Shown here: piece by piece, positions 8,431-48,141 of the stretch
Numbering within the stretch: the stretch's first letter is position 1
How the letters are laid out: every line of letters begins with the position of its first letter
Assembly (NCBI GenBank): GCA_030446555.1
Contig: JAUJNA010000001.1
Span: forward strand, 238,634 to 302,633
DNA from: Chloroflexota bacterium
Lineage (GTDB): Bacteria > Chloroflexota > Limnocylindria > Limnocylindrales > CSP1-4
Direction: 5' to 3'
Length of the DNA: 64,000 nucleotides
Position numbers and translations under genes: made by a program
The notes under the pieces: generated by a model
Databases searched by the model: none
Told to the model about the DNA's origin: nothing
What the model saw: the letters and a program-made list of their open reading frames with translations, nothing else

Positions 8431-8461
8431 GCCGCGCGCTCACCAGCGACGAGGTGCGGCC

Positions 8462-15379: not shown

Positions 15380-15687
15380 CCCAGTCGCTGGACGCCTACC
15401 TGATCCTGGCCAGTCTCCTCTTCACGATCGGCACGTTCGGCTTCCTCGCCAGACGGAACGCCATCGCCATGCTCATGTCCATCGAGCTCATGCTCAATGC
15501 CGTGAACCTGGCCATCGTGGCGTTCGGCGCGTACGTTCCCACGCTGGCCGAGGATGGCGCGCTGATCGCGCTCTTCGTCATGGCCGTGGCGGCGGCCGAG
15601 GCCACCGTGGGGCTGGCCATCATCATCGCCATCTACCGTAACCGGAGGACGCCGCTCGTCGACGAGTACGCGTCGATGCGCGAATGA
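15376..15687 (+). CDS. nuoK: NADH-quinone oxidoreductase subunit K
   Basis: 103 aa, [46 protein letters not shown]…, the NuoK/ND4L signature. Confidence 0.9.
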
Positions 15688-15756
15688 GGGCACGAACGTC
15701 GCGCGACCGGAGGACGACCCGCGTCGATCGACCTGCCGTGATGCGGGGATAAGAGG

Positions 15757-20821: not shown

Positions 20822-20865
20822 CCGTCGAGCGAGCGGAGGTGCCCGTCCAGCCGGCCGAGGACGGG

Positions 20866-28274: not shown

Positions 28275-28988
28275 GCACGGCATCCGTTTCGCGCGACAGG
28301 ATCGCCGCCCCGACCACTCGCGACCGGTGGCGCGCGCGCATGGAGCCGCTCGCGCGGGGCTTTCGGCGGGTCGGCCTGACGCCGAACGCGCTGACGCTCA
28401 TCGGCTTCGGCATCGCGGTGCTCGCCGCATGGTTCGCGACCCAGCAGGCGTGGCTGGCCGCGCGGATCGCCGTCATAGTCGCGCGGGTTCGACCTCTTCG
28501 ACGGCGCCCTCGCCCGAGCGACCGGCAAGGTCACGAAGTTCGGGGCATTCCTCGACAGCACGATGGATCGCTGGGGCGAGGCCGTCGTGTACGTCGGCCT
28601 TGCCATCGGCCTCGGCGAGGTCGGGCTCTCACTCGGGATGCCGCTCGCCGCGGCCGCGATGGCATCCGCGTTCATGGTGAGCTACGTGCGGGCCAAGTCC
28701 GAGAGCCTCGGCTTCACGTCCGGCCGGGGGATGGCCAGCGTAGGCCTTGCCCCGCGCGAGGTCCGCATCGTGATCCTGTCGGCCGGGCTCATCGGGGCGG
28801 GGGCCCTCTCGCCGCAGGCCGCTGGAAGCCTCGCCGACGGGTTCGCTGGTGCGGGCGGCGGCGTCATCGGGGTCTGGTACATGGTCCTCGTCGGGTCGCT
28901 GGCCCTCATCACCGTCCTCGCGACCATCACCACCATCCAACGCATCCTCCACGTCTACCGGGAAGCCAAGCAGCAGGAGCAGCAGTAG
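28271..28988 (+). CDS. CDP-alcohol phosphatidyltransferase (phosphatidylinositol(-phosphate) synthase-like; apparent frameshift near 28484)
   Basis: N-part in frame 2 (…[48 protein letters not shown]). Remainder in frame 0 ([40 protein letters not shown]…), carrying the D-G-x2-A-R…G…D-x3-D motif. Possible GTG start at 28271 overlaps the arsR stop; the alternative is ATG 28340. Confidence 0.75.
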
Positions 28989-28992
28989 TCAG

Positions 28993-30261
28993 ATGACCAA
29001 GATCAAGAGCAGCAACGGCAACGGCCGCGCCCCCCGCCCCCGCAAGGACGGCAAGATCCGCGTCGCCATCGTGGGCGTCGGGAACTGCGCATCGAGTCTC
29101 GTCCAGGGCCGCTACTACTACGAGGACGCCAAGCCGACCGACTTCGTCCCGGGCCTGATGCACGTTGACCTGGGCGGCTATCACGTCCGCGACATCGAGT
29201 TCGTGGCGGCTTTCGACATCGACAAGAACAAGGTCGGCAAGGACCTCTCCGAGGCGATCTACACGGCGCCGAACAACACCTACGTCTTCCAGCAGGTCCC
29301 GGACCTCGGCGTACCGGTCGAGCGCGGCATGACCCACGACGGCCTGGGCAAGTACCTCAGTCAGATCATCGAGAAGGCTTCCGGCCCGACGGCCGACGTG
29401 GCCGGCATCCTGCGTGAGCGTGAGGTCGACGTGATGGTCTCCTACCTGCCGGTGGGCAGCGAGGAGGCCACCAAGTGGTACGTCGAGCAGGCGCTACGGG
29501 CCGGTGTCGGCTTCATCAACGCCATCCCGGTCTTCATCGGGCGTGAGCCGTACTGGCAGCGCCGGTTCGCCGAGGAGGGCCTTCCGGTCATCGGTGATGA
29601 CATCAAGAGCCAGGTCGGCGCGACCATCAGCCACCGGGTGCTCACCCGTCTCTTCATGGATCGCGGCGTCCGACTGGACCGGACCTACCAGCTGAACTTC
29701 GGCGGCAACACCGACTTCCTCAACATGCTGGAGCGCGAGCGGCTGGAATCGAAGAAGATCTCCAAGACGAACGCCGTGACCTCCATGCTCGACTACGAGC
29801 TCGACCCGGACGACGTCCATGTCGGCCCGTCCGACCACGTGCCGTGGCTCAAGGACCGCAAGTGGTGCTACATCCGGATGGAGGGCACCACCTTCGGCGA
29901 CGTGCCGCTGAACGCGGAACTGAAGCTCGAGGTCTGGGACAGCCCCAATAGCGCGGGCGTCATCACCGACGCCATCCGCTGCCTGAGGCTCGGCCTCGAC
30001 CGGGGGCTCTCGGGAACGCTCGTGGCACCCTCGTCGTACTTCATGAAGAGCCCGCCGCAGCAGATCCACGACGACATCGCCTTCAACCGCGTCGAGGCGT
30101 TCATCCGTGGCGAGGACAACGAGACCCTCGTCGGGACGGAGGAGCTCAAGCCGCGCAGGATGCGCAGGCTCGCCCAGCCCAGGACGCGGGTCATCGCCTC
30201 GGCTGCGGTCGGCGAGGCCGGCCCATCGCGGGCCGCCGCCAAGGCGGGCACGGACCGCTGA
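28993..30261 (+). CDS. ino1: myo-inositol-1-phosphate synthase
   Basis: 422-aa bacterial/archaeal-type MIPS (…[18 protein letters not shown]…[36 protein letters not shown]…[39 protein letters not shown]…). Confidence 0.9.
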
Positions 30262-30350
30262 CCGCTGCGCGGGAGCGAGCGTCGCGCCCCGCGGCGCCCG
30301 CCGGCTCCGGCGTCTCGTACGCACCGCACCGCCGCGCCTCGGGCGGGCGC

Positions 30351-31340
30351 GTGACACGACTGATGCAGCGCGCCCGGGAGCGCTCCGTCGTGACCGGGTA
30401 CCGGGCGGCATCGGGCGCGCTGGTGCGCATACCGACGGGGGTCTCCCAGCCGCTGGCCAGCTCGCTCTTCCTGGGCGGTTACTGGGCCTGGCCGCGCAAG
30501 CGACGGATCATCGAGTCCAACGCGGCGCGGATCCTGGGCAGGCCGGAGGATGCTCCCGAGGTGAAGCGCCTCGCCCGGCGCATCTACGTAACCTACGCGC
30601 GCTTCGTGGTCGAGCTGATGCGCCTGCCCGCCATGGCCGCCGATGCGCCCCAGCGGCTCGTGCGCGACGAGGGCGAGCGGAGCGGCGCATCGTTCATGGG
30701 GCTGTGGGAGCGCTACCGCTCCGACGGCCGCGGCCTGATCGCCGTGAGCGGCCATATCGGCAGCATCGAGGTCTTCGCCGGTGCATTCGCGGCGCGCGGC
30801 CTGCCGACATACGGGCTGGCCGACGACACGGCCTATCCGGAGCTCTTCGAGCTCCTCAACGGGCAACGTCGCCGCTGGGGTGTCGGCGTCATCCCATGGC
30901 GCAACCTGCGTGAGACGTACCGCGTGCTTCGGGAGCCGGCGGTGCTCGGCCTGCTGGTGGACTGGGGCTACCGGAGCGACGGCATCCCGGTGAAGCTGTT
31001 CGACCGATGGACCTGCCTGCCGGCCGGCCCCGCTCAGCTGGCGGCGCGCACGCGCGCGGCGATCGTCCCGGTCGTCAATCGTCGCCGCGACGACGGCACG
31101 TACGTGCCCAGCCACGACGATCCCATCGAGGTCGCGGACGCCTCTCCCGCGGAGATCCAGCGAGCGACCCAGGCCATCGCGGACGCGCTCGAGCGCATGA
31201 TCGCGCCGGCTCCGGAGCAGTGGTACACGTTCAAGCCGGTGTGGCCCGCGACGGCGGAGGAAGAAGCCCTGCTGGAGGCTCGCGCCCGGGACATGACGCG
31301 CGGCGCGCACGGCGGGCGCGGCGGGATGCGACCCACGTGA
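30351..31340 (+). CDS. lysophospholipid/lipid A-type acyltransferase (HtrB/LpxL family; PIM acyltransferase-like)
   Basis: LPLAT superfamily motifs (…GRGLIAVSGHIGSIEVFAGAF…). Gene context pairs it with pgsA/pimA-like genes. Confidence 0.75.
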   Translation: MTRLMQRARERSVVTGYRAASGALVRIPTGVSQPLASSLFLGGYWAWPRKRRIIESNAARILGRPEDAPEVKRLARRIYVTYARFVVELMRLPAMAADAPQRLVRDEGERSGASFMGLWERYRSDGRGLIAVSGHIGSIEVFAGAFAARGLPTYGLADDTAYPELFELLNGQRRRWGVGVIPWRNLRETYRVLREPAVLGLLVDWGYRSDGIPVKLFDRWTCLPAGPAQLAARTRAAIVPVVNRRRDDGTYVPSHDDPIEVADASPAEIQRATQAIADALERMIAPAPEQWYTFKPVWPATAEEEALLEARARDMTRGAHGGRGGMRPT

Positions 31341-32374
31341 GCTCGGGGATCCCGGCGGCCGCACCACCCCCGCCCGCGACACCACGCCGGCCCACGCTCC
31401 GGCAGCGCGGGGTGACGGCTGCGCTGGGAGTCGGGGTGAGGCTCCTGCGGAGGCTGCCGGACCGACTCGTGTACCGGCTCGGGTTCGCCGCCGGGACCGG
31501 CCTGTACCTGGTCATGCCCGCCCGGCGACACCTGGTGCGCACCAACCTCCGGCGTGTCTGCGTGGCCCTCGTCGGCCAGGGGAGGGCTTCGGACCGTGTC
31601 CGCCGCGCGGCGAGCGACGAAGGCGCCCTGGACGCCATGACGCGGTCCGCGTTCGGACACTGGGCCCTGGCCTACGTGGAACCGGCGATCGCGCTTTCCT
31701 ACGCCCCGGACCGGCTCGCCGATCGCGTCCGCGCCCCGCACGACGCCGTGGCGCGTGATGCCCTGGCACCGCAGCCCCCCGGGGCGCCCGGTCGCATCTT
31801 CGTGAGTCCGCACTTCGGGTCCATCGAGCTGACGGCGCTCTACGGCGTGGTCATCGGCGGGCTGCGCATGGTGGCGCCCATGGAGACCGTCGCCGACCCG
31901 GCGATCCAGGCGTACCTGGAGCGGGCTCGGGGCGCGACCGGCATCGACATCGTGCCCATCAGGGGCGCCTCGACCGTGCTCAGGGCCGCGCTCGCGGACG
32001 GGCAGGCCGTGGCGCTCGTGGCCGATCGGGCCATCGACGGTATGGGCATGCCCGTCGAGCTCTTCGGCGCGAAGACCCGGTTGCCGCTTGGCCCGGCGGT
32101 GCTCGCCGTCGAGTCAGGGGCGCCGATGTTCGTGGTGGGCACCCGGCGGACCGACTGGGGGTCGTGGGCCATCCGCGTCGAACGGATCGAGCCCGTGGCG
32201 ACCGGGACGCTTCGGCAGCGGATCGTCGCCCAGCTGGATGCACAGGCGCGCGCCTTCGAGCGGATCGTCGCCGACGCCCCCGAGCAGTGGTGGACCTGCT
32301 TCTTCCCCGTCTGGCACTCGGATCCTGCCGGATCGGTGCAGCCCCCGCGCCGACCGATCGCGAAGGCGGCCTGA
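31337..32374 (+). CDS. second HtrB/LpxL-family acyltransferase paralogue
   Basis: GTG at 31337 overlaps the previous stop (GTGA). …RIFVSPHFGSIELTALYGVVIGG… is the acyltransferase HxxxxD-like region. The ORF's upstream 110 aa in this frame are low-complexity and probably not coding. Confidence 0.7.
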   Translation: MSSGIPAAAPPPPATPRRPTLRQRGVTAALGVGVRLLRRLPDRLVYRLGFAAGTGLYLVMPARRHLVRTNLRRVCVALVGQGRASDRVRRAASDEGALDAMTRSAFGHWALAYVEPAIALSYAPDRLADRVRAPHDAVARDALAPQPPGAPGRIFVSPHFGSIELTALYGVVIGGLRMVAPMETVADPAIQAYLERARGATGIDIVPIRGASTVLRAALADGQAVALVADRAIDGMGMPVELFGAKTRLPLGPAVLAVESGAPMFVVGTRRTDWGSWAIRVERIEPVATGTLRQRIVAQLDAQARAFERIVADAPEQWWTCFFPVWHSDPAGSVQPPRRPIAKAA

Positions 32375-33192
32375 TGGGCCGAGCCGACCTGCACATCCAC
32401 TCGCTCGCGTCCGACGGCATCTCCACGGTGAGCGAGATCCTCCAAGCCGCGGACGCCGCGCGCCTCGACGTCATCGCCATCACCGACCACGAGCGCATCG
32501 ACGCCGCCCTTGCCGCTCAGCGGATGACGGATCTCGACGGGCACCGCGTGCGCGTGATCGTGGGCGAGGAGATCACCACGCGCGGCGGGCATCTGCTGGG
32601 ACTCTTCCTGAGGGAGCGGATCAAGCCCTGGCAGAGCCTCCGGCGGAGCGTGGCACGCGTGCACGAGCAGGGTGGCATCGCGGTGGTGGCCCATCCGCTC
32701 GTGCCCTACCCGCTCTGTGCGAGCGCCAGCGCCATCCGGAGGCTGCTCGACCACCCGGACCCGATCTACCATCCCGATGGCATCGAGGCGTTCAATCCCA
32801 CGACGGCCGGGATGCGCTGGACCCGACAGGTGCCGGACTTCGTGGCGCAGACGGGACGAGCGGCGCTCGCCGGCAGCGATGCACACCGTGCGCGTGACGT
32901 GGGCCAGGCGGTGACCCTCTTCCCGGGCACCACACCCGAGGACCTCCGGCGGGCGATCGAGGAGCGTGCGACGCAGTGGGAGGGGACGTTCTATCCGTGG
33001 CGATCACAGCTCACGATGTTCCGTCACCAGATGACGAAGAACGCGCGCGCGCTGCGGGATGATGTCGCGGGCAAGCTGCGACGTGACGGGACGGGCCGCG
33101 ACCTGGGCTATCCCGGTGGGCGCTGCCGTCCGCCTCGCTTCGACGAGCGCGAAGCGGGTCGATGCATGTCCCCTACGGGACCGGACGCATGA
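32374..33192 (+). CDS. PHP-domain metal-dependent phosphoesterase
   Basis: MGRADLHIHSLASDGISTVSEILQAADAARLDVIAITDHERID…VVAHPLVPYPL… The ATG overlaps the previous stop (ATGA). Confidence 0.8.
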   Translation: MGRADLHIHSLASDGISTVSEILQAADAARLDVIAITDHERIDAALAAQRMTDLDGHRVRVIVGEEITTRGGHLLGLFLRERIKPWQSLRRSVARVHEQGGIAVVAHPLVPYPLCASASAIRRLLDHPDPIYHPDGIEAFNPTTAGMRWTRQVPDFVAQTGRAALAGSDAHRARDVGQAVTLFPGTTPEDLRRAIEERATQWEGTFYPWRSQLTMFRHQMTKNARALRDDVAGKLRRDGTGRDLGYPGGRCRPPRFDEREAGRCMSPTGPDA

Positions 33193-34376
33193 AGATCGGC
33201 CTCGTGACGCCGTACATCTACCCGCTGCCCGGCGGCGTCAACGCGCACGTCGCGCAACTGTACGAGAACCTCATCGCGCGCGGTCACGACGTCCGCATCC
33301 TGAGCTCCACCCACGGCATCCAGAAGAGCAGCGAAGGCGACGTCATCCGCCTGGGCTATGGCATCAGCGTGCCCACCAACGGCTCGGTGGGCACGCTCAC
33401 CTTCTCCCATCGCTACTCATCCCTGGTCCAGGAGGTGCTGCACCGCGAGCGCTTCGACCTCCTCCACTTCCATGAGCCATTCGTGCCCTTCCTCTCCCTC
33501 CAGCTGCTGCGCTTCTCCACGAGCGTCAACATCGCCACCTTCCACGCCTACGCCGGATGGAGCCCCTCGTACGAGTTCGGCAAGCGCGCCCTGAAGGGGC
33601 CCGCACGTCGGCTGCACGGACGGATCGCCGTCAGCGCAGCGGCACGCCATTTCATCGACCGCTACTTCCCGGGCGACTACAAGGTCATCCCCAACGGCGT
33701 GGCGCTTCGCCAGTTCCAGGGCGTCCAGCCCTTCGCTCGCTGGCGGGATGGGACGGCCAACATCCTCTACGTCGGGCGCTTCGAGAGCCGCAAGGGCGTG
33801 CTGCATCTCCTGAAGGCGTACCGGGTCCTGCGCAGGCAGGGCTTCGACTGCCGGCTGCTCCTGGTGGGGTCGGGCCCGCAGGAGCGTGAGGCGCGGCGCT
33901 ACGTCGCCACGCGGCGCCTCCAGGGCGTCGAGTTCCTTGGCCGTGTGAGCGACGAGGACAAGGCTCGGTACTTCGCGACGGCCGACGTCTACGTCTCACC
34001 GGCCACGGGCCAGGAGTCGTTCGGGATCGTGCTGCTCGAGGCCATGGCGTCCGGCACGCCCATCGTGTGCAGCGACATCCACGGCTACAAGGGCGTCGTC
34101 CGCCGCGGCGAGCAGGCCCTGCTGGTGCCGCCGCGTGATCACCTGGCGCTGGTGGAGGCCATCGGTCGGTTGCTCGGCGACCCGGAGCTTCGAGCCCGCA
34201 TGTCCGCCTCCGGGCGACGGCGTGCCGTGCAGTTCAGCTGGGAGAGCATCACCGCCAAGGTCGATGACTACTACGGCTTCGTCATCCGCCGGCTGGCCGC
34301 CCAGGGCCAGCTGCCGGTCGGGTTCCGCGCCGCCATCCCGGCACCGCCGCGTCCGCTGGTCCTGCCGGCGACCTGA
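33189..34376 (+). CDS. GT4 glycosyltransferase, PimA-like (phosphatidylinositol alpha-mannosyltransferase-like)
   Basis: MKIGLVTPYIYPLPGGVNAHVAQLYENLIARGHDVRIL… plus the C-terminal GT-B domain (…YVSPATGQESFGIVLLEAMASGTPIVCSDIHGY…). Overlaps the PHP gene stop. Confidence 0.8.
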   Translation: MKIGLVTPYIYPLPGGVNAHVAQLYENLIARGHDVRILSSTHGIQKSSEGDVIRLGYGISVPTNGSVGTLTFSHRYSSLVQEVLHRERFDLLHFHEPFVPFLSLQLLRFSTSVNIATFHAYAGWSPSYEFGKRALKGPARRLHGRIAVSAAARHFIDRYFPGDYKVIPNGVALRQFQGVQPFARWRDGTANILYVGRFESRKGVLHLLKAYRVLRRQGFDCRLLLVGSGPQEREARRYVATRRLQGVEFLGRVSDEDKARYFATADVYVSPATGQESFGIVLLEAMASGTPIVCSDIHGYKGVVRRGEQALLVPPRDHLALVEAIGRLLGDPELRARMSASGRRRAVQFSWESITAKVDDYYGFVIRRLAAQGQLPVGFRAAIPAPPRPLVLPAT

Positions 34377-34397: not shown

Positions 34398-37300
34398 CTA
34401 GCCGGTCTCTCCCAGCGGCCCGCGAGGCGAGCGCACGCTGCCGCCGCCGCGCCAGGAGCGGGCGACGATCATGGCCACGAGCACCAGGGCAGCGGTCGCC
34501 AGACCGATGAGCAGTGTGCCCACATCGACGATCGGGCGGTCCGACGCCGGATCGAGGTTCACGGCGAACTGGAAGTCGTAGTTCCAGGTGGGCAGCAGCC
34601 CGAGGTACGCCTGTGCCACCGAGTCGGGCAGTGGCAGACCGGTCAGGCTCGGGTACCAGAGCAGGAAGAAGAGGGCCGCCGCGCCCAAGACGCCGATGAC
34701 CCAGCGCCTCGGATCACGCGTGCGTGCGGCAAGGTAGGCCGGAGCCGCGAGGAGCAGCAGCGCGACGATGGCCAGGACCTCGGCCTGCACCGGCAGGGTG
34801 AGGAACGGCCGCGGGCTCAAGAGCAGCGAGGCCCCGGCGGCACCGAGAGCCGTGGCGACCGTGACGACCAGCAGCGCCGAGAGCAGCGAGACCTCGATGT
34901 CTCGCGACGAGGTGCGCACGCGGAGGAGCGGGTCCGCCGACCCGGTGCGTACCTGGGCGCGCACGAGCCAGGCGATGGTCGCCGCGCCGATGAGCACGAC
35001 GATGGTCGCCGCGAAGGCCGACTCGGCGATGGTCAGCGAGCGCACGAGGGGGCCACAGGCGACACCGTCCGGATGGACCGCCTCGGTGCCCGCGAGCCCG
35101 CAGAGCGGCTGGCGCAAGAGCCACAGCAGGGGTGGTCCCAGGATGGCCACGCCGCCCGCGATACGCGCCAGGAGATAGGTCCGCGACGACGGGCCGTGCC
35201 ACAGCTCGCCGAGGAAGTAGGCCAGCGCGAGGACGGTGAACGGCAGGCTCGTGAACACGTGGTACTGGAAGGTGGCACGGTCGATGCGCGCCCACGGCAG
35301 CCAGAGGCAGGCGATCCCGAGCACGATGAGCGTCAGGGAGAGGGATCGGCGTGCCCACGCCTGCCACGCACAGAAGGCCACCGCAGGGATGGCCAGCCAG
35401 AAGATGACCACGTTGCCGGCGTCGTAGATGACCCCGGTCGTGGAAGCCGCGAAGCCGTCCTGGTGGAACCAGACCGGCTTGAGATCCAGCGGCCACGCCC
35501 ACCACGGGGACGAGGCGGCGTGCGTCGCGCGCAGCTCGTCGTGGTAGCGGTACATGCTGACGGTCAGGTCGGCCAGCGTCTGGCCCGTGTGGCCGGGAGG
35601 CCAGTCGGTGAGGATCCGGTTGCCGCCGCCGATCTCCAGTGCGGCCCAGGGGACGTAGCTGGCGATGTAGACGGCGAGCGGGATGACCGTCAGACAAAGG
35701 AGCGCGTAGCTCCACGGGATGCCCGCCGCCCAGCCGGGTCTGAGCCAGCCGGTCGGGGCGGCCGAGGGGACCGGCTCGCCCCTGGCGACCGGTCGGGGAG
35801 GCGCGAGCGGCCCCACCCCCAGTCTGGCAGCCACCCAGCTGCCACCGTACGCTGCCGCGCCCAGGAGGAGCAGGCCCGCCCCCGCGAAGAGGACGCGGTT
35901 CGGTGCCAAGAGACCGCTCGCTGCGGAAGCGCCGCCTGACCCCATGACGAAGCCCGCGAGGACCAGGAGGCTGCCCAGCAGGGCCGGGGCGAGGACCGCG
36001 AAACGGAGCTCGTCCAGCGTGAAGCGCACCGGGCGGCGCACCATCGCGGCCGCCAGGAGGATGGTCAGCGCCGCCATCAGGAGCAGGAACGTCGCGTTGA
36101 TGCGTGGATCCGCCACGTCCGCCGGCCGGACGGCGAGATAGCCCAACAGCGCGGTGAGGCCGATCATGGCGGTCAGCGTGATGACCCGTCCCAGGGCCGA
36201 CCGAAGCAGGACCAACAGCACCACGAAGCCGATGGCGTAGGCACCCACCCACTTGGTCCCGAAGGCCAGCCCGAGCAGGAGCCCGACCACCGGCAGGACG
36301 AGGAGCACCGCCAGCCGACTCCTCCAGATGCCGAGATAGAGCGGAGCGAAGAGCGCCACGGCGGACACGATGAAGGCCGTGACGTACGTGTCGTTCATGG
36401 CGATCCGGGCGTTGGCGAAGAACATCCCCTCGGCCATCACCAGCAGCGACGCCAGGACGGCCACGCTACGGCGCCGGAACAGGACGCGAGCGAGGAGGAA
36501 GATGGCGGCTGCCGTGAGCGCGCCCATGATCACTCCCGGCATGCGCCACGCGAAGGCATGCGAGCCAACATCGACGCTCGCGACCGTCCCGTCCGTGGAG
36601 AAAGCCAGCAGATCCTGCCGATCATCGGTCGGGCGGTCGGGCTGGATGTCCATGACGGTGGCTCGCGGCGTGAACGGGAGCCGGGCGTCGGCGAAGACGG
36701 CGTTGGCGTGCGGCTCGACGACGTAGACGGTCGTACCGCCACCGTCGGGCGCGTCGCCCACGACGTGCACGAGGTTGGTCGCGCCATCCCAGCGAGCCGA
36801 GCGCACATCGGCGGGCATGGGCATGTCCGTCCCGTGGCCCGGCCCGTCGTCGCCGATGGGCAGCGTCGTGACCTGGATCCCGTTCGGGACGTAGAGCGTC
36901 GGATCGTCCAGGCCCTCCACCAGCGCCAGGTCGGTCGCCGGAGCGTCCGTCGTGAGCTGTTCGAGCTGCTCCAGGCTGACCGCGTCAAGGAACGTCACGC
37001 CGACGGCACCGGCCACGGCTGCCGTGGGACCGGGCTCGATCGATGTGCCCTCCAGGCTCGCGTCGTCGATCCCCTTCTGGACCGACCCCGTCATGGTCTT
37101 GTCGAGATAGGCCGCTACCGACACGGGGCCGGTCGCGCCGCTGATCAGCTCCTCGAGGCGCGCCGCATCGTCATCGAGGATCCGGGCCAGTGACTCGGCC
37201 AGGGCAGCGGGGTCGGAGACCCCTGCCGGATCGACCACCACGCGGTCCGCCGGCGGGACGCGCGCGACGGCCTGGGCTCCCTCCACGAACGCCTCGCCCG

Positions 37301-39794
37301 TCTGCTCCCCGGTGACGCCGTCGAGGCTCAAAAGCGTCCCCCCCTCGACACGGACGAGGAGGCTCCCATCGACGACGCCGAGCCCCTCGATGAGGCGCGA
37401 CACCCCCTCCAGCGGCGCCAGCCGCGCGGCCTCCGGGAGGGGGCGGAGAGGGTCCAGCCGCAGCTCGTCGAGCGCCGCCGTCGGGAGGGACCAGATCGTC
37501 CCGGCCTCGGCCGCGGCGAAGAGCGTGTGGGCCGACTCGTCGACGGCGAGGGCCGTGGCGGGGAGCGGAAGCTGCGCCACCAGGTCCCGGGTACGCAGGT
37601 CGTGCACGCGCACCTCCGTCCCGGTCGCCACGTAGAGCCGGTCCCCGAGGCGCTCGCCCGGCCGCTCGGCCGGGCTCCAGCGCGTCTCGAGCGCAGCGTC
37701 CGTGACGGTCGTGCCCAGATCGGTCGTGCCCGTGACCCGATCGTTGCCCAAGGCCATCAACCCGACGGCGATGCCGTACTTGGCCACGTGCGGATGCGTG
37801 TACTCGTAGACCGAGTGGGGGATGCCGTATCGCCAGTCCTGGAGGAACTCCGTCGCCGTCCGCGCGTGGTAGACCTCGTCGAAGTGCATGTCGTAGGGCT
37901 CGCCGACGCGGTACGTGCGCAACGTCAGCGCACCAAGGATGACGAGGACGACCAGCAGCAGATCCAGCCGATCCAGGCGCCCGGTGGGCTCGGCCCGGAG
38001 CTCAGCCGAGCGGTCACGCCGCAGGGGGTGGACGCGGAAGCGGTCGGACAGCCACGAGAAGGTCCCGGGCTGGGGCGACCACGGCTGCTCCATCGACGTG
38101 ACGCCCTGGGCCGTGCCCTGAGCGCCCCGCGGCGCGTCAGCCGCCCCGGGTCCCCGTGCACCGGAGAGCGCCGTGGGACGGCTTCGAACGCCGGCTGCCA
38201 CCTCTCGCGACAGCGGATCGGGACGGCGCACGGCACCGGTCCGCAGCTGCCATGCGACGAAGGCGAAGACGCCCACCTGCAGCGCGACGCTCAGGGCCAC
38301 GAACGGGAAGGACCGGAAGAGCTCGCCGAACGGCAGGTCCGCCACGTTCTCCGTGGCGTAGAGGGGGAACGTGAGGATCGCGTGCAGGTTGATGAACGAG
38401 CCCGCCGCGAGGAGCACCGTCGCCCAGCGCCAGCGTCCGTCGGCCACCGCGAGGAGCGGCAGGAAGGCGAAGGCGGGGAAGAGGTACCGCTCGTGGACCC
38501 GGGTGGGCAGCACGAAGAACGCGAGGCTGAGGAAGACGGTGACGACCACGATCGACCAGCGGTCGGCGCGGAGGAGGAGCCGGGCCACGCCCAGCAGGAA
38601 GCCACCCGCCAGCAGGACGGTGCCCACGACCACCCCCGAGAACGGACCCAGCAGCGGAACCGTGTCGGACGACCAGCCGCCGCCGGTCGCGAGGGAGCCG
38701 GCGCCCTCCGAACCCATGAGAGCCCAGGGGTTGTAGGCGTTCACGCTCAGCCAGGGATAGCCACCGGCGGTCTCGGCGACGAGCCGGATGAAACCGGGGA
38801 TGTCGAGGCGGAACGGCGTCAGGAGCAGAAGCATCACCCCCAGGCCGATGGCCGCGCTGCTGAGGAGCCTGATCGGTCCCTGCTGCCGCACGAGCCAGGA
38901 AGCGAGCGGATCGGGAAGGCGGGGGCGATGGTGCGGCCCGGAGCCCACGGCCAGCAGGTGCCGACGCAGCAGGACCGCCGCGACGATGGGCACGAGGACC
39001 ACCCCGAACTGGGGCTTCACGAGCCCTGCCAGGATGGCTGCCGCGACCGCACCCTCCGAGTGGCCACGCAGGAGGAGGCTGACCCCGACCAGCATGACCA
39101 GCGCTCCCACCGCATCGGTCTGCCCCCAGAGCGCCGAGTCGTACCAGGTGATCGGGTTGAAGAGGTAGGCCCCCGCCGCGACCAGCCCCAGCCGGCCGGC
39201 GTTGGCGCCCGGCGAGCGGGACCAGCGTGTCACCATCCTGAACAGGAGGGCACCGATGCAGATGTCCGCGCCGATCGACGGCAGCTTGATGAGCGTCCCC
39301 GCAAGGGACGCAGCATCCGTGCCGGCCAGCGGCGCCAGAGCGTTCGCGAGCAGGCCGACCGGCCAAAGCAGGTAGAGGTAGCCGGGGGGATAGTCAGCGA
39401 AACCCGCGTTGGCATAGAAGCCGCCGGGTCCGTGGTCCGCGAGCGTCAGCGCCCACGACGTGAAGCTGGAAAGGTCGTTCTCGAAGCCGGACCCGGGCAG
39501 GACGATGTATGCGATAGTGAGCCGCAGGGCCAGCCCGGCCACGAGCAGGACGACCAGCGCGGGGATCGCCGTCAGTGCTCCAGGCGGGCGTCCGGACGCC
39601 CCGTGGACGCCCTCGACCCCAACCTCATGGGTCGATGTCAACGTCGACCGGCCTCCAAGGAAAGGCGACGAGGGTGACCGGCAGTATAGCGAAGGACCCC
39701 CAAGCGCCCCTGCACCCGCCGCCCCGGGGCAGAGCCGCCGGCCCGTCTGCCCGGTACCTCGAGCGCATCCATCCCGCCTGGGTGGGAGCTGCAT
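34398..39794 (-). CDS. giant (1798-aa) membrane glycosyltransferase: N-terminal GT-C (ArnT/DUF2029-like) region joined in frame to a PMT/GT39-like protein O-mannosyltransferase with a roughly 350-aa inserted beta-rich domain
   Basis: Residues about 70-550 form a multi-TM GT-C-like region (…YLFNPITWYDSALWGQTDAVGALVML…). From M556 (38127-38129) onward there is a PMT-like start (…YDMHFDEVYHARTATEFLQDWRYGIPHSVYEYTHPHVAKYGIAVG…) and a PMT C-terminal module (…ASSPWWAWPLDLKPVWFHQDGFAASTTGVIYDAGNVVIFWLAIPAV…). It is one continuous ORF with GC3-rich codons. The true 5' start is uncertain; a GTG near 39623 is possible. Confidence 0.7.
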   Translation of the reverse strand: MQLPPRRDGCARGTGQTGRRLCPGAAGAGALGGPSLYCRSPSSPFLGGRSTLTSTHEVGVEGVHGASGRPPGALTAIPALVVLLVAGLALRLTIAYIVLPGSGFENDLSSFTSWALTLADHGPGGFYANAGFADYPPGYLYLLWPVGLLANALAPLAGTDAASLAGTLIKLPSIGADICIGALLFRMVTRWSRSPGANAGRLGLVAAGAYLFNPITWYDSALWGQTDAVGALVMLVGVSLLLRGHSEGAVAAAILAGLVKPQFGVVLVPIVAAVLLRRHLLAVGSGPHHRPRLPDPLASWLVRQQGPIRLLSSAAIGLGVMLLLLTPFRLDIPGFIRLVAETAGGYPWLSVNAYNPWALMGSEGAGSLATGGGWSSDTVPLLGPFSGVVVGTVLLAGGFLLGVARLLLRADRWSIVVVTVFLSLAFFVLPTRVHERYLFPAFAFLPLLAVADGRWRWATVLLAAGSFINLHAILTFPLYATENVADLPFGELFRSFPFVALSVALQVGVFAFVAWQLRTGAVRRPDPLSREVAAGVRSRPTALSGARGPGAADAPRGAQGTAQGVTSMEQPWSPQPGTFSWLSDRFRVHPLRRDRSAELRAEPTGRLDRLDLLLVVLVILGALTLRTYRVGEPYDMHFDEVYHARTATEFLQDWRYGIPHSVYEYTHPHVAKYGIAVGLMALGNDRVTGTTDLGTTVTDAALETRWSPAERPGERLGDRLYVATGTEVRVHDLRTRDLVAQLPLPATALAVDESAHTLFAAAEAGTIWSLPTAALDELRLDPLRPLPEAARLAPLEGVSRLIEGLGVVDGSLLVRVEGGTLLSLDGVTGEQTGEAFVEGAQAVARVPPADRVVVDPAGVSDPAALAESLARILDDDAARLEELISGATGPVSVAAYLDKTMTGSVQKGIDDASLEGTSIEPGPTAAVAGAVGVTFLDAVSLEQLEQLTTDAPATDLALVEGLDDPTLYVPNGIQVTTLPIGDDGPGHGTDMPMPADVRSARWDGATNLVHVVGDAPDGGGTTVYVVEPHANAVFADARLPFTPRATVMDIQPDRPTDDRQDLLAFSTDGTVASVDVGSHAFAWRMPGVIMGALTAAAIFLLARVLFRRRSVAVLASLLVMAEGMFFANARIAMNDTYVTAFIVSAVALFAPLYLGIWRSRLAVLLVLPVVGLLLGLAFGTKWVGAYAIGFVVLLVLLRSALGRVITLTAMIGLTALLGYLAVRPADVADPRINATFLLLMAALTILLAAAMVRRPVRFTLDELRFAVLAPALLGSLLVLAGFVMGSGGASAASGLLAPNRVLFAGAGLLLLGAAAYGGSWVAARLGVGPLAPPRPVARGEPVPSAAPTGWLRPGWAAGIPWSYALLCLTVIPLAVYIASYVPWAALEIGGGNRILTDWPPGHTGQTLADLTVSMYRYHDELRATHAASSPWWAWPLDLKPVWFHQDGFAASTTGVIYDAGNVVIFWLAIPAVAFCAWQAWARRSLSLTLIVLGIACLWLPWARIDRATFQYHVFTSLPFTVLALAYFLGELWHGPSSRTYLLARIAGGVAILGPPLLWLLRQPLCGLAGTEAVHPDGVACGPLVRSLTIAESAFAATIVVLIGAATIAWLVRAQVRTGSADPLLRVRTSSRDIEVSLLSALLVVTVATALGAAGASLLLSPRPFLTLPVQAEVLAIVALLLLAAPAYLAARTRDPRRWVIGVLGAAALFFLLWYPSLTGLPLPDSVAQAYLGLLPTWNYDFQFAVNLDPASDRPIVDVGTLLIGLATAALVLVAMIVARSWRGGGSVRSPRGPLGETG

Positions 39795-41102
39795 TCGTGG
39801 CTCTCGCGGTCGCGGTCTACGTGCTCAGCAACCCCGCGCGTCCCGACTTCTATGACCACTTCGTGTGGCAGGCGCACGCCTGGCTGCACGGTCGAGCCGC
39901 CATCCCTTTCCCATATGACGACGGGGTCTTCCGGAACGACTACTTCCAGGATGTCTTCCCCCTCCCCGATCGACCGGGCTATGCCCTCATCCCGTTCCCG
40001 CCCCTGCCCGCGGTGGTGCTGCTGCCCTTCGTGGCGCTCTTCGGACTGGCCACCAACGGTGCCCTCGTCGCGGCCGTGCTGGGGGGCCTCAACGTGGGGC
40101 TCTGCTGGCGGATGCTCCGGCGAGTGGCGCCTGCGGGAGGCGCAGCCGCCCTGGCCACGACGTTCTACGGGTTCGGCACCGTGGCGTGGTACGCGGCGAT
40201 GCTGGGAAGCACTTGGTTCCTCGCCCACGTCGTTGCCTCCACCTTCCTGCTCCTCGCCATCACGGCCGCGCTGGACGCCGCGGCCCACGAACGCGGGGGA
40301 CGGGGTAGACGGCTGCTGGGCCTCATCGAGCCACGCCAGTTCATGGCCGGGGTGTTGTTCGGTACGGCGGCGCTCTCGCGGCTGACCACCATCCTCGGCG
40401 CGCCGTTCTTCCTGTTCGTCGGCGGCGGAGGCTCCTACCGGCGGCGTGCCATCTCGGCCGGCCTTGGAGCGGCGATCCCTGTCGCGCTCCTGCTCGCCTA
40501 TAACGTGGCCACCACGGGACACGTCTTCCATCCCGCGTACGAGTACCTCTACCGCAACGAGTATCGGCCCGACCGGAGCCTGTACCACCCGGAATGGGCC
40601 ATCGAGGACCCGCGCTACGTGCCCCAGAACGCCGCCATCATGCTGCTCTGGCCGCCGGATACGCCGCTGCTCGAGCGCCGAGTGCGATGGCGACCCGGCG
40701 ACCGGCGCGGCCGGAGCTGCAGCGTCCGACCGGGATTCGATCCTGTTCGACGAGTGCCCTGCCCGCTCCTTCGCCCCGATCCCATCGGCATGAGCCTGAT
40801 CCTCTCCAGCCCGGCCTACCTCCTGGCCGTTCCGGCCATCGTCCGGCTGGGCCGGAGGCGTCTCGTGGCCGGGGCTGTGCTGGCGGTCGCCGCGATCGCT
40901 CTCGTCAACCTGATGCACTTCAGCCAGGGCTGGGTCCAGTTCGGCTACCGCTTCAGCAACGACTTCGCCCCCTTTGCCATGCATCCCCGTCGCGCTGGGC
41001 ATCGCGCAGCTCGGCGTGCGCCCTCTCACGCTCACCCTCGTGGGCCTGTCGATCCTGGTCAACGCGTGGGGCGTCTACTGGGGCGTGACGCTCGGGTGGT
41101 GA
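39635..41102 (+). CDS. GT-C fold membrane glycosyltransferase (ArnT/PMT-like; apparent frameshift at the C4 run near 40985)
   Basis: Multi-TM protein (…FYDHFVWQAHAWLHGRAAIPFPYDDGVFRNDYFQDVFPLPDRPGYALIPFPPLPAVVLLPFVALFG…). The last 38 aa (PVALGIAQLGVRPLTLTLVGLSILVNAWGVYWGVTLGW*) are in frame 0 while the body is in frame 2. The segment 40680-40800 is also suspicious. Confidence 0.65.
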
Positions 41103-42752
41103 ACGAGGCACCGGCTCCCGCCTCCGCGCCGTCGGGGGCCGCGCCGCGACACCGCCGCGCGCGCGGTGCGGCCGCGTCCCTCATCCCGCGGGGCGCCCTT
41201 GCGCCGGCCCTCGCGTCGTTCCTCGTCGCGCTCGCCCTCGAGGTGCGCACCCTCCTGCCCGACATCGCGTTCTGGGACACGGCCGAGTTCCAGGCCATCG
41301 GACCGGTGCTCGGCATCGCCCACCCGACCGGCTATCCCAGCTACACGCTGCTCGCCTGGCTGGCGTCGGTCCTGCTCCAGCCATTCGGCAACGAAGCGCT
41401 GCGAGCGAACCTCCTCTCCGCGCTGCTCGTCTCTGCCGCCTGCGGCCTCACCGCCGCGGTGGTGGTCCAGCTCACGCGGCGGCGACTCCTCGCGTTGGCG
41501 GCCGGTGTCGCTCTGGCACTCACCCCCACCATCTGGCGCATCGGCCTTCGCGCGGATGCCCACGCGCTCCACCTCGCCCTCGTCGCCTTGCTGCTGCTCC
41601 TGCTCGTGGGGTGGGCTGAGCGGAGCCGGCACCCCGATCGCGGCGACGCACGCTGGCTCGTGGCGTCGGCCATCGTCTTCGGCCTGGCGCTGGGCAACCA
41701 TGCGCTGATCCTGCTGCTGGCGCCGGGCATCGCCATCTTCGTCCTCATGGTCGATCCCTGGCTGCCGGTGCGGCGCCCCAGGGCTGGTCCTCGCCTGCGC
41801 TGCGGCGCTGGCCGTGACGACGATCGTGCTCTACGCGTACCTGCCCATCCGCTCGGCGATGGATCCGCCACTCGACTACGCCGACCCCGAGACCTGGGAG
41901 GCCTTCCGCTACGTCGTCCTCGGCGAGCAGTTCCGCGGCACCTTCTCGCCGCTGCCCTCGCTGTCGGTCGGCGCTGGCCGCGTCTGGGAACAGCTGTTGG
42001 CGGACCTGGGACCGGTGGCCCTCCTCTCGGTCGTCGGCGCCATCTGTGGCGTTCTGCGCTGGCCGCGCCTCATGGGCCTGACGGGACTCTGGTTCGTGCT
42101 CACGTTCGTGTTCGCCCTGGGGTATCTGAACGCCGACATCGGTCGCTACTACGCCGTGCCCATCCTCCTCGCTCTCCTCTGGGCAACGCTCGGGGTGGCC
42201 GCCATCGCGGACGTCGCCGAGCGCCTCCTCGGCCGAGGTCTGGCCTCCCGGCCGCCACGGCCATCGGCCGCCGGCCACCCGACCCGACCGGCCCCCACCG
42301 CGACGGCCCGGATCCCGGCTCGCGCGCTGTCGGTGCTGGGTGCCTTCCTGCTCCTGGCGCCCTCGACCGTGGCCCTGCCACGGACCTTCGACGAGGTCGA
42401 CGCTTCCGGAGAGCGCGATGCGCGCGTCTGGCTGGAAGCCACACTGGCGGCCATCGAGCCGGACGCGGTGGTCGTGAGCTGGTGGAGCTACTCGACCCCA
42501 CTCTGGTACGGCCGGTTCGTGGAGGGCCGGCGCCCCGACGTGACCGTCATCGACGATCGCACCATCCTGGACCAGGGTCTGGGTGATGTCATCGCCGTCA
42601 TCGGGCGTCACCTGGGCGAGCGCCCCGTCTACATCATCCGCCTACCGCGCGATCTCGACGAGGTCGCCGCCAGGTACCGGCTGGAGCCCGTCCCGGGCGC
42701 TCCCGGGATGGGCGGGCTCCGGCGAGTCGTGCCACCCGCGGCTCCGGGATAG
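41099..42752 (+). CDS. DUF2723 (TMEM260-like) family membrane protein, putative mannosyltransferase (apparent frameshift near 41765-41790)
   Basis: GTG at 41099 overlaps the upstream stop (GTGA). DUF2723 hallmark …DIAFWDTAEFQAIGPVLGIAHPTGYPSYTLLAWL… in frame 2. C-terminal part in frame 0 (ORF 41814-42752: …TTIVLYAYLPIRSAMDPPLDYADPETWEAFRYVVLGEQF…). Confidence 0.7.
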
Positions 42753-42841
42753 CCGACTGCTAGGATCGGGGCCATGCCCTCCGCTCTCGTCCCGTCCTTC
42801 GGTCCGCCTCGTTGGCCCGCGAAGAAGCCCTCACGGCGCGG

Positions 42842-43633
42842 ATGACCGATCCTCGAGCTGACCACCTGCGGGTCCCGGCCCTCTCCTACTTCTTCCCCGC
42901 TCACGACGAGGCCGAGAACGTGGCGCCGCTGGTGGCCGACGCACTGGCAGAGCTGCCGCGCCTCGCCCGGACCTTCGAGATCATCTGCGTCGATGACGGC
43001 AGCCGCGATGGCACGGGTGCCATCGCCGACCGCCTCGCAGCGGAGCACCCCGGACTCGTCCGTGTGGTGCACCATCCCGGCAACCGCGGGTACGGGGCCG
43101 CGCTGCGCAGCGGATTCGGTGCTGCCCGTCATGAGCTCGTCTGCTTCACGGACGGGGACCGACAGTTCCGCGTCGCTGACCTTTCGCTGCTGCTGGATCG
43201 GCTGGTCGAGCCGGACGGCGCGGACGGGACCCCCGACGTGGTCTGTGGGTATCGCCTGCGGCGAGCCGATCCACCGCTCCGTCTGGCCTACGCTCGGATC
43301 TACCGGCTCTGCCTGCGGCTCTTCTTCGGGATGCGGCTGCGGGACGTGGACTGTGCTTGCAAGCTCTTCCGCCGGGGCGCCCTGGAGGACGTGCGCGTGG
43401 AGTCGGGCGGAGCCTTCCTCTCGGCGGAGCTGCTCATCAAGCTGCGCGAGAGCGGCCGCAGGGTCGCCGAGGTGGGCGTACCGCACCACCCGCGTACGGC
43501 CGGCCGCGCTTCCGGTGCCCACCCCAGGGTGGTACTGCGAGCCGTGCGTGACTTCTGGTGGCTGCGGCTACGCCTCTGGGCTCGCCGCGGGGCGACGCTG
43601 CGCAGCGGTCAGCCCATCCTGGAGTCTTCCTAG
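42842..43633 (+). CDS. GT2 polyprenyl-phosphate mannose synthase-like (Ppm1/DPM1-like)
   Basis: …LSYFFPAHDEAENVAPLV…FEIICVDDGSRDGTGAIADRLAAEHPGLVRVVHHPGNRGYGAALRSGF…DGDRQF… is the DPM1-type GT2 signature. Start taken at ATG 42842; the ORF begins at TTG 42812. Confidence 0.8.
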   Translation: MTDPRADHLRVPALSYFFPAHDEAENVAPLVADALAELPRLARTFEIICVDDGSRDGTGAIADRLAAEHPGLVRVVHHPGNRGYGAALRSGFGAARHELVCFTDGDRQFRVADLSLLLDRLVEPDGADGTPDVVCGYRLRRADPPLRLAYARIYRLCLRLFFGMRLRDVDCACKLFRRGALEDVRVESGGAFLSAELLIKLRESGRRVAEVGVPHHPRTAGRASGAHPRVVLRAVRDFWWLRLRLWARRGATLRSGQPILESS

Positions 43634-43646
43634 CCCCCGGCGGCCC

Positions 43647-44216
43647 TCAGTCGGAGCGCGGTCCGCGCTCGCCGTGGGAAGGCGGCTCATCGCGTGTCTC
43701 GGGCTCACCGCCCCGCTCCCTCGCGCCGCCCGTGCCGCCCTCCAGATCGGCCTCCAGCGAGTTCACGAACTCGCGGAAGACGGAGAGCTTCTCGTCCTCG
43801 TCCGTCTCGGGCACGACGCCCGCCCTGTCCAGTACGGCATCGGTGGCATAGATGGGCACCGCGACACGCACCGCCAGCGCGATCGCGTCGCTCGGACGAG
43901 CGTCGATCTCGCGCGTCCGGCCGTCGAGCTCGAGCACCAGTCGAGCGCGGTACGTCTCGTCGGCAAGGTCGCTGACCACGATCCGTCGGACCGTGACACC
44001 GAACTCGTCCAGGGTCCGCGCGAAGAGGTCGTGTGTCAGCGGCCGCTCCGGCGCCACGCCCTGGAGCCTCATCGCGATGGCGTTCGCCTCCCACGGTCCG
44101 ATCCAGATGGGCAGGTAGCGATCTCGCTCGGCTTCCTTCAGGATCACGACGTGCTGCGAGGAGAGCATGTGCACGCGGACGCTCTCGACGACCATCTCGG
44201 TGAGACCGACTGGCAT
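43647..44216 (-). CDS. bifunctional nuclease (BFN/DUF151) family protein
   Basis: MPVGLTEMVVESVRVHMLSSQHVVILKEAERDRYLPIWIGPWEANAIAMRLQGV…ARPSDAIALAVRVAVPIYATDAVLD… is the DUF151 signature with an acidic C-terminal tail. ATG on the complement of 44214-44216. Confidence 0.8.
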   Translation of the reverse strand: MPVGLTEMVVESVRVHMLSSQHVVILKEAERDRYLPIWIGPWEANAIAMRLQGVAPERPLTHDLFARTLDEFGVTVRRIVVSDLADETYRARLVLELDGRTREIDARPSDAIALAVRVAVPIYATDAVLDRAGVVPETDEDEKLSVFREFVNSLEADLEGGTGGARERGGEPETRDEPPSHGERGPRSD

Positions 44217-48116: not shown

Positions 48117-48141
48117 GACAGCGACGCCGCCCGGACTCGTG

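Follow-up and report, generated by a model that had tools for sequence, protein, structure and literature searches.

We examined a 64,000-nucleotide stretch of DNA from a bacterium of the phylum Chloroflexota, lineage Limnocylindria (assembly GCA_030446555.1, contig JAUJNA010000001.1, positions 238,634 to 302,633 of the forward strand; hereafter, the window), in which a single minus-strand open reading frame (ORF) of 5.4 kb encodes a giant membrane protein. Its conserved architecture comprises three modules: an N-terminal unit predicted to adopt the glycosyltransferase C (GT-C) fold, a second GT-C unit resembling the protein O-mannosyltransferases (PMT) of family GT39, and a predicted beta-propeller set into the first outer loop of the latter. 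The features of the gene are given below, with window coordinates; residue numbers follow the 1798-codon ORF, and those of the annotated protein of 1747 amino acids (aa) are obtained by subtracting 51.

34398–39794, minus strand: the ORF, 1798 codons plus stop, uninterrupted (ORF listing and third-position G+C profile)
34398–39641, minus strand: probable true coding sequence, TTG start, 1747 aa, identical to database protein P0001
39652–39656, minus strand: GGAGG, Shine-Dalgarno-like, ending 10 nt upstream of the TTG at 39641 (read from the sequence)
38205–39617, minus strand: N-terminal GT-C module, residues ~60–530, with ~12–13 predicted membrane helices (AlphaFold2, Foldseek and Pfam matches of relatives)
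37974–38204, minus strand: inter-module linker, residues ~531–607, variable, Arg-rich here, of low occupancy and identity, presumably cytoplasmic
37743–37973, minus strand: first transmembrane helix (TM1) of the PMT module and start of its outer loop 1, with D639–E640 (codons 37875–37880) and the HPHVAK helix
36570–37742, minus strand: predicted beta-propeller in PMT outer loop 1, residues ~685–1075, ~390 aa (AlphaFold2 and Foldseek)
37065–37211, minus strand: helical sub-insert of the propeller, residues ~862–910 (AlphaFold2 model)
35115–36569, minus strand: PMT core from TM2 on, plus PMT_4TMC, residues ~1076–1560 (Pfam; alignments with Pmt1 and Pmt4)
Within the PMT core, minus strand: key invariant residues R1084, D1135 (36390–36392), K1181, R1506 (35277–35279) and F1509 (35268–35270)
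34401–35114, minus strand: C-terminal region, residues ~1561–1798, with extra membrane helices and a conserved C1565/C1580 pair

The G+C content of the region is approximately 70–72% and, because chance ORFs arise in DNA of such composition, a long ORF alone would be weak proof of a gene. Here, codon-position bias and end-to-end homology both support a coding role: G+C at third codon positions (GC3) is 0.84–0.99 in each 100-codon block from codon 101 on (0.75 in the first block), and in BLASTP each of five homologues gave one unbroken alignment running from residue 1 to approximately residue 1700–1747. The uninterrupted 5.4-kb minus-strand coding frame noted in a preliminary description of this DNA is thus upheld, with all 1798 codons present. 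The start codon lies further in. P0001 begins at the TTG at 39641, which is 51 codons downstream of the first codon of the ORF; conservation within the family sets in only near residues 60–70, and the divergent neighbouring gene starts near 39668. The first 51 codons are probably untranslated, and the gene probably starts at the TTG.

A search of 5.8 billion proteins returned 898 relatives, and the figures for the family given here come from the best 120 of these; in addition, 490 loci were confirmed among GTDB genomes, scanned at one per species, and in the best 80 of these the modules were placed by tblastn. Almost all of the 120 proteins are 1635–1913 aa long and share 48–64% identity with the query, mostly over 92–97% of its length. 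They originate from JGI, ENA, NCBI and Logan assemblies, and those carrying a taxon label are assigned to Chloroflexota or Candidatus Limnocylindria; likewise, the best 80 loci all lie in metagenome-assembled genomes (MAGs) of Chloroflexota (Limnocylindria). The family occurs in uncultured soil and freshwater Chloroflexota. The modules are colinear in all 80 loci and, where enough sequence is present, form a single ORF in all but 16.

The preliminary description had left a choice between a true tandem fusion of two transferases of lipid-linked sugars and an indel that had run an upstream gene into the PMT gene. The latter, an error of assembly or annotation in which an indel or an overlooked stop close to the junction has merged two neighbouring genes, could draw on the 16 related MAG loci with frame breaks inside the giant gene, as well as on the probable indels that three nearby genes of the window show at short homopolymers (see below). 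However, all 16 broken loci are among the 31 from 'MFD' MAGs, whereas none of the 49 other GTDB loci is broken; the same fusion is present in all of these 49 that reach far enough and in the independent assemblies from JGI, ENA, NCBI and Logan. Moreover, the 'MFD' breaks fall at differing positions along the gene with the order of the modules kept, a pattern that fits assembly-specific frame errors rather than a conserved two-gene arrangement. GC3 also stays at or above 0.84 across the junction, and the linker holds no conserved start codon: its only methionine, M568, is absent from the other 119 aligned sequences and is, hence, not a conserved internal start. We consider an artefact extremely improbable. 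The ORF is a genuine single gene that joins two GT-C modules, the second PMT-like, and the tandem architecture was found in the best 120 of the 898 relatives and in the best 80 loci, being kept in every homologue examined. As for the 'MFD' set itself, with 16 of its 31 giant-gene loci disrupted, gene calling in these MAGs calls for caution.

The linker varies in length from 67 to 190 aa across the 120 homologues, and residues 516–607 carry 15 Lys/Arg against 8 Asp/Glu in the window protein, while the family median is neutral, with 12 of each. A complete PMT-like protein had been said to begin at M556; the methionine in question is M568, and the PMT module starts at the transmembrane helix near residue 608.

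From there, the PMT module occupies the C-terminal ~1200 aa of the protein (residues ~608–1798). It matches PF02366 (PMT) with 45.2 bits against a cut-off of 22.7, at residues 1080–1197 and over profile positions 82–198 only, and PF16192 (PMT_4TMC) with 43.5 bits against 32.4, at residues 1407–1532, the latter agreeing with the C-terminal transmembrane module of PMTs recognized earlier. Both domains score above their cut-offs in all of the best 120 homologues. When the family profile was searched against the PDB, it matched yeast Pmt1 (6p25) with an E-value of 2.7e-5, aligned over Pmt1 residues 138–251. The DE-containing loop motif that had been quoted, YDMHFDEVYHARTATEF, is indeed present at residues 634–650 of the translation; its FDEV stands opposite the FDEV of Pmt1 (D77/E78), and although this stretch alone scores -0.3 bits, both D639 and E640 are invariant in 120 of 120 family members. 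D1135, within RIAMND, aligns with Pmt1 D189. A search of the PDB with the PMT_4TMC region as a single sequence returned nothing, and a 12-sequence profile of it then matched yeast Pmt4 (residues 545–668, E-value 0.005), in which R1506 and F1509, within DRATFQYH, align with ARQKFLHH. D1135, R1506 and F1509 are invariant in alignments of 78 and 12 sequences. Mutagenesis of the Mycobacterium tuberculosis Pmt demonstrated that D74, D176, R441 and Y444 are essential (PMC12331936), and the counterparts of these residues are D639, D1135, R1506 and F1509, respectively. Judged by these alignments, the module is a PMT/GT39-like GT-C unit with a complete set of catalytic residues. Conserved motifs are also found towards its C-terminus (RDPRR, YPN..LP.P and LLPTWNYDFQF), the last two of which align with the C-terminus of Pmt1 at low score.

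What sets this module apart is its outer loop 1. An AlphaFold2 model of residues 585–1784, built with 78 sequences, reached a pLDDT of 89.8 and a pTM of 0.89, and in it the inserted region forms approximately 28–29 strands. The 50 Foldseek matches to the PDB that were listed all have a probability of 1.00 over ~400 aligned columns, with target template modelling (TM) scores of up to 0.79; they include WD40 propellers (TLE1, G-beta, beta'-COP), YncE and BamB, and the targets that we recognized among them are seven- and eight-bladed. The insert also has weak propeller matches by sequence in PDB and Pfam. The models point to a WD40-like beta-propeller, probably with seven blades, given the number of strands and the closer match with seven-bladed targets. 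The large, soluble, beta-rich loop-1 insert of the preliminary description therefore stands, while its extent and character change, from ~350 aa of beta-strand repeats at residues ~700–1050 to a ~390-aa propeller at residues 685–1075. Across the family, the propeller has a median net charge of -31 and is thus strongly acidic. It begins ~45 residues after D639/E640, just past the HPHVAK helix, and ends ~10 residues before TM2 (R1084), an insertion point that would place it on the outer face, next to the catalytic loop.

The N-terminal module was modelled separately (residues 60–560, pLDDT 89.7, pTM 0.90), and its best Foldseek match among all PDB chains is yeast ALG6 (6snh, E-value 1.3e-7, TM-scores 0.61/0.64), other top matches being PIG-U, ALG3, PimE (target TM-score 0.61) and GPI mannosyltransferase I. 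ArnT, with TM-scores of 0.37–0.42, ranks below ALG6, ALG3, PimE and PIG-U. In a Pfam search, the module of the window matched no family, neither Alg6_Alg8 nor PIG-U included, and a PDB sequence search with its profile gave only a chance match to a transmembrane helix. Its relatives are more informative: out of 14 N-terminal modules, 13 match Alg6_Alg8 (E-value of 10 or below, best 7.2e-10), nine match PIG-U and two match GT87/DUF2029. A few of these pass the cut-offs, over the first half of the module: P0083 reaches 31 bits for Alg6_Alg8 (PF03155; cut-off 25), over profile positions 46–230 of 482 only, and P0056 reaches 28.8 bits for PIG-U (cut-off 24.5). For GT87 (PF09594), the best E-value is 0.0013, and P0083, at 17.2 bits, stays below the cut-off of 25. 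The only ArnT match in NCBIfam (18 bits) lies in the PMT module instead of the N-terminal one. Thus, of the ArnT/DUF2029-type assignment made earlier for the N-terminus, the GT-C fold class holds, and neither ArnT nor DUF2029 does. We also considered the module as a diverged PMT copy, which would have made the protein a covalent Pmt1–Pmt2 pair; structures of Pmt1, Pmt2 and Pmt4 reach TM-scores of only 0.29–0.34, ruling this out. The models rather indicate an independent GT-C unit of the ALG6/ALG8/PIG-U/PimE structural class. ALG6 and ALG8 (GT57), together with PIG-U, are eukaryotic proteins of the endoplasmic reticulum that act on lipid-linked oligosaccharide or glycosylphosphatidylinositol (GPI). 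With PimE and GT87, and with ArnT (GT83), the module shares the GT-C fold, the logic of a polyprenyl-phosphate-sugar donor and an acidic residue in external loop 1 (EL1).

The conservation of this module is concentrated in a limited number of residues. Its EL1 holds the motifs GFxxD (D107) and DYPP (D134), and further invariant motifs are YDSAxWGQxD (218–227), KPQ (260–262) and PTRxHERY (430–437); residue by residue, D107, D134, D177, Y218–D219, W223, Q225, D227, E247, K260–P261–Q262, R278, R432 and H434–E435–R436–Y437 are invariant. Approximately 15 of the invariant polar residues map to the predicted outer face. D107 lies ~10 residues after TM1, and in GT-C enzymes the catalytic acid usually sits shortly after this helix. 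When 1.84 billion cluster representatives were searched with a profile of the module, 5973 relatives were identified (E-value of 1e-3 or below), among which are fused forms reaching 2390 aa and a coherent set of free-standing, complete proteins of ~500 aa, one of the latter labelled Candidatus Dormibacteraeota. In 81 free-standing relatives (~40% identity), the same invariant residues are retained except for D134, which is mostly replaced by N.

One free-standing relative, P0318 (L084, 9001–10572, plus strand), is divergent from a gene for a 362-aa protein (7723–8811, minus strand) that faintly matches Sortilin-Vps10 and BNR and may be a beta-propeller, and a GtrA-like gene and a PMT_2/YkcB_C gene are located 2–3 kb downstream. 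This neighbourhood may represent a split version of a partnership between a GT-C protein and a propeller.

A hydropathy scan was too noisy for counting transmembrane helices, and the topology was read from the AlphaFold2 helices and the charges of the loops. Acidic and K/R-poor stretches mark the putative outer loops (both EL1 regions and residues 212–227, 329–386 and 475–495), and net-basic stretches the putative inner ones (residues 187–200, 279–306, 406–413 and 449–456). This distribution, together with the acidic propeller, fits a model in which the N-terminus is inside, an even-numbered bundle of ~12 crossings plus one interface helix leads to a cytoplasmic linker, and TM1 of the PMT module runs outward. 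Both GT-C modules would accordingly face the outside of the cytoplasmic membrane, with the linker between them in the cytoplasm.

A close parallel to this combination has been described in mycobacteria. A pull-down of Pmt in M. smegmatis recovered homologues of Rv0051, Rv3212 and Rv1209, and the proposed complex consists of Pmt/Rv1002c, Rv0051, Rv3212 and two copies of Rv1209 (bioRxiv 10.64898/2026.07.15.738315, 16 July 2026). In the same preprint, Rv0051 is described as GT87-like and without catalytic residues, and a part like that of Pmt2 is proposed for it; Rv3212 is a periplasmic propeller of eight blades that the model puts right over the DE motif, with a suggested likeness to MIR domains; and in Paenibacillus, GT39 proteins are fused to a GT87-family enzyme. 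The Limnocylindria protein resembles the mycobacterial complex in having a GT39 unit with a DE motif, a second partner with the GT-C fold and an extracytoplasmic beta-propeller. In mycobacteria, however, these are separate subunits, whereas here they form one chain with the propeller inside PMT loop 1, and in all homologues the second GT-C-fold unit is covalently joined to the GT39 unit. The partner also differs, being ALG6/ALG8/PIG-U-like with invariant polar residues here and GT87-like without catalytic residues in the case of Rv0051; the propeller apparently has seven blades as opposed to the eight of Rv3212; and no DivIVA-like bridge was identified for the Limnocylindria protein. We propose that the latter is probably a single-chain, three-module PMT glycosyltransferase, a counterpart of the mycobacterial complex of Pmt, GT-C partner and propeller.

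Within such a single-chain PMT, the N-terminal module might be an inactive pseudo-glycosyltransferase that dimerizes with or stabilizes the PMT module, or binds the lipid carrier; yeast Pmt2, mycobacterial Rv0051 and PIG-U are the parallels that we propose. PIG-U is a non-catalytic, GT-C-like subunit of the GPI transamidase, and the module matches it by fold and, in nine of the 14 relatives, in Pfam; the description of Rv0051 as devoid of catalytic residues (bioRxiv 10.64898/2026.07.15.738315) points the same way. On the other hand, the ~15 outer-face polar residues, D107 included, are invariant also in relatives without an attached PMT, which favours an active or ligand-binding site, and conservation of this kind suits an active or specific ligand site better than a scaffold. 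We hold an inactive module to be quite unlikely, and lean modestly towards one that is itself catalytic rather than a mere scaffold, for example by extending the first sugar.

The single-chain PMT can further be compared with characterized members of the family. With yeast Pmt1–Pmt2 and Pmt4 (6p25, 9e61), it shares the PMT and PMT_4TMC domains, the DE motif, the Asp of external loop 2, the Rx2F motif and the HPxxAK loop, as well as the general plan of two paired GT-C units and, presumably, a soluble domain that caps the active site. In yeast, the partner is a PMT paralogue, while in Limnocylindria it is not and the pairing is covalent; the yeast cap is a MIR beta-trefoil located between the PMT core and 4TMC, as opposed to a propeller in loop 1; and the Limnocylindria protein has extra C-terminal helices. 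All four essential residues of the M. tuberculosis Pmt (Rv1002c; PMC12331936) have conserved counterparts, and a polyprenyl-phosphate sugar donor is presumably also shared. At ~3.5 times the length of that enzyme, the Limnocylindria protein adds the propeller and the N-terminal GT-C unit, and it falls short of the equivalog cut-off for bacterial Pmt.

On these grounds, protein O-glycosylation (mannosylation) by a self-contained PMT machine is, from what the sequences suggest, the most likely function. The PMT module would move a sugar, probably mannose, from a polyprenyl-phosphate carrier onto Ser/Thr of exported proteins, with the carrier-linked sugar supplied by a neighbouring GT2; the propeller, positioned over the active site, would select or hold the acceptor; and the N-terminal module would act as the built-in second GT-C subunit of PMT dimers, the part taken by Pmt2 in yeast and by Rv0051 in mycobacteria.

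Several observations weigh against this proposal. The protein scores 41 bits for the NCBIfam Pmt equivalog NF058602, the cut-off of which is 800, and the PMT module is a distant branch, separate from characterized bacterial Pmt. Sugar, acceptor and activity are predictions, and so are the location of the propeller above the active site and the contact of one GT-C module with the other. In the two gene contexts of free-standing N-terminal modules that were read, no PMT gene adjoined. Considering that the partner family and the number of blades differ, and that the two systems were compared by description, the likeness to the mycobacterial complex may be convergent. Finally, the tight, conserved linkage to an inositol-phospholipid operon resembling that for phosphatidylinositol mannosides (PIM) suggests a glycolipid over a protein acceptor.

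The gene context was read in the window and on two megabase-scale contigs, those of homologues P0016 and P0037, and presence was counted over the best 80 of the 490 loci, in which most absences are due to contig ends. Names of neighbours denote resemblance only, all NCBIfam matches being below their equivalog cut-offs.

39668–41099, plus strand: divergently oriented neighbour of the giant gene, encoding a faintly GT87-like membrane protein of ~484 aa, in 72 of 80 loci
41210–42752, plus strand: TMEM260-like GT-C gene (PF11028, 96.7 bits, first part), in 60 of 80 loci
42812–43633, plus strand: GT2 of the polyprenyl-phosphate-sugar-synthase type (PF00535), in 67 of 80 loci
28286–34376, plus strand: inositol-phospholipid/PIM-like operon, convergent with the giant gene, its GT4 in 60 of 80 loci

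The order along the chromosome is dnaN, recF, a DciA-like gene, a gene for a ~760-aa protein, a bifunctional-nuclease-domain gene, GT2, the TMEM260-like gene and the ~484-aa gene (the last three all divergent from the giant gene), followed by the giant gene itself and then by GT4, PHP phosphatase, two PIM-acyltransferase-like genes, myo-inositol-1-phosphate synthase (Ino1), PIP-synthase-like and regulator genes. This synteny is kept across both Limnocylindria clades. The operon thus comprises a helix-turn-helix regulator, a CDP-alcohol transferase resembling phosphatidylinositol phosphate (PIP) synthase, Ino1, the two PIM-acyltransferase-like proteins, a PHP-family phosphatase and a GT4, and judging from these resemblances it looks like a phosphatidylinositol-mannoside-type pathway conserved in Chloroflexota. 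Its counterparts on the two other contigs lie at 15376–21875 (L001) and 15153–21504 (L002), and the PHP-family phosphatase is a candidate PIP phosphatase. Altogether, the locus holds four GT-C-type modules and a likely polyprenyl-phosphate-sugar synthase, the GT2, whose best NCBIfam matches, all far below their cut-offs, are PgaC/IcaA (53.0 bits) and PpgS (52.7 bits), and then MftF, Dol-P-hexose transferase and ArnC.

Such surroundings invite a different explanation, in which both GT-C modules extend, outside the membrane, a phosphatidylinositol-anchored glycolipid resembling PIM or lipomannan (LM) whose synthesis the neighbouring operon initiates. On this view, the PMT-like module would have switched from proteins to a lipid or glycan as its acceptor, and the propeller would keep hold of the chain during elongation. 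Among the structural matches to the N-terminal module is PimE, a GT-C enzyme of PIM elongation that uses polyprenyl-phosphate-mannose. Mycobacterial PIM/LM elongation is carried out by GT-C enzymes with this donor, MptB among them (bioRxiv 10.64898/2026.07.15.738315). The synteny of PIP-synthase-like, Ino1, PIM-acyltransferase-like, PHP phosphatase and GT4 genes on one side, together with the conserved presence of a GT2 and two more GT-C-like genes on the other, would suit a lipoglycan enzyme well. Yet the giant protein carries PMT and PMT_4TMC domains with the full set of peptide-acceptor- and donor-positioning residues of the M. tuberculosis and yeast enzymes, and a shared donor and shared regulation may alone explain the clustering of envelope-glycoconjugate genes. 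In addition, the ~484-aa neighbour, in which GT87 is matched in two of 16 members, is a weak candidate for the role of PimE, which would leave the giant protein free to act on proteins. We rate a role in glycolipid or lipoglycan synthesis, the main rival, as unlikely and retain the single-chain PMT as the preferred reading. A literature search for Limnocylindria or Chloroflexi in connection with mannosyltransferases or PIMs found nothing relevant.

A bolder form of this reading, which we offer as possible but doubtful, is that the gene represents a natural 'Rosetta-stone' fusion of a whole O-mannosylation machine, GT39 plus GT-C partner plus propeller, that both starts and extends O-glycans. 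Bacterial protein O-mannosylation has long been held to need one small enzyme only. In the mycobacterial preprint, Pmt is argued to depend on a second GT-C-like subunit and a beta-propeller (bioRxiv 10.64898/2026.07.15.738315). If the fusion is of this nature, it would provide independent evolutionary evidence that the three-part organization is ancient and general beyond Actinobacteria, and its partner unit would be a bacterial protein with catalytic competence from the ALG6/ALG8/PIG-U lineage; to our knowledge, that lineage has been treated as essentially eukaryotic. An analogous trio in one chain from a phylum-distant lineage would lend gene-fusion-type, independent support to the proposal of the mycobacterial preprint. 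Being encoded by one gene, the protein also offers a construct with which structural biology and biochemistry can address the roles of the partner and the cap in acceptor choice, and the 5973 cluster representatives related to its N-terminal module point to a sizeable, uncharacterized bacterial GT-C family related to ALG6/ALG8/PIG-U. For uncultured Limnocylindria as such, the findings indicate a conserved locus near the replication origin for envelope glycosylation that depends on inositol lipids and polyprenyl-phosphate sugars.

Some features of the neighbouring genes deserve mention in their own right. Compared with orthologues, the reading frame switches in the PIP-synthase-like gene (28474–28488), in the ~484-aa gene (40965–40981) and in the TMEM260-like gene (41776–41817), in each case at or near short homopolymers (GGG, CCCCC, CCCC) and with GC3 tracking the switched frame. 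Accordingly, the plus-strand ORF at 39575–42586 (1003 aa) is a run-through of two genes and not one protein. The three breaks are probably assembly indels, and in pattern they resemble the frame breaks of the 'MFD' MAGs. The ~484-aa membrane protein has the conserved motifs LPFPPLP and NDYFQDV; we considered it as a possible relative of the N-terminal module of the giant protein and rejected this, no relation being detectable with hhalign (probability 0.4%).

Between the DciA-like gene and the bifunctional-nuclease-domain gene (43698–44216) lies the gene for the conserved protein of ~720–760 aa (44368–46533, minus strand), which occupies the same position in L001 and L002 and for which Pfam and NCBIfam gave no family and only a faint NHL repeat. 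The orthologues of recF and dnaN (46953–49242, minus strand) are 7–10 kb from the giant gene, with dnaA next to them in L002, a proximity that places the entire glycosylation locus near the chromosomal replication origin in this lineage.

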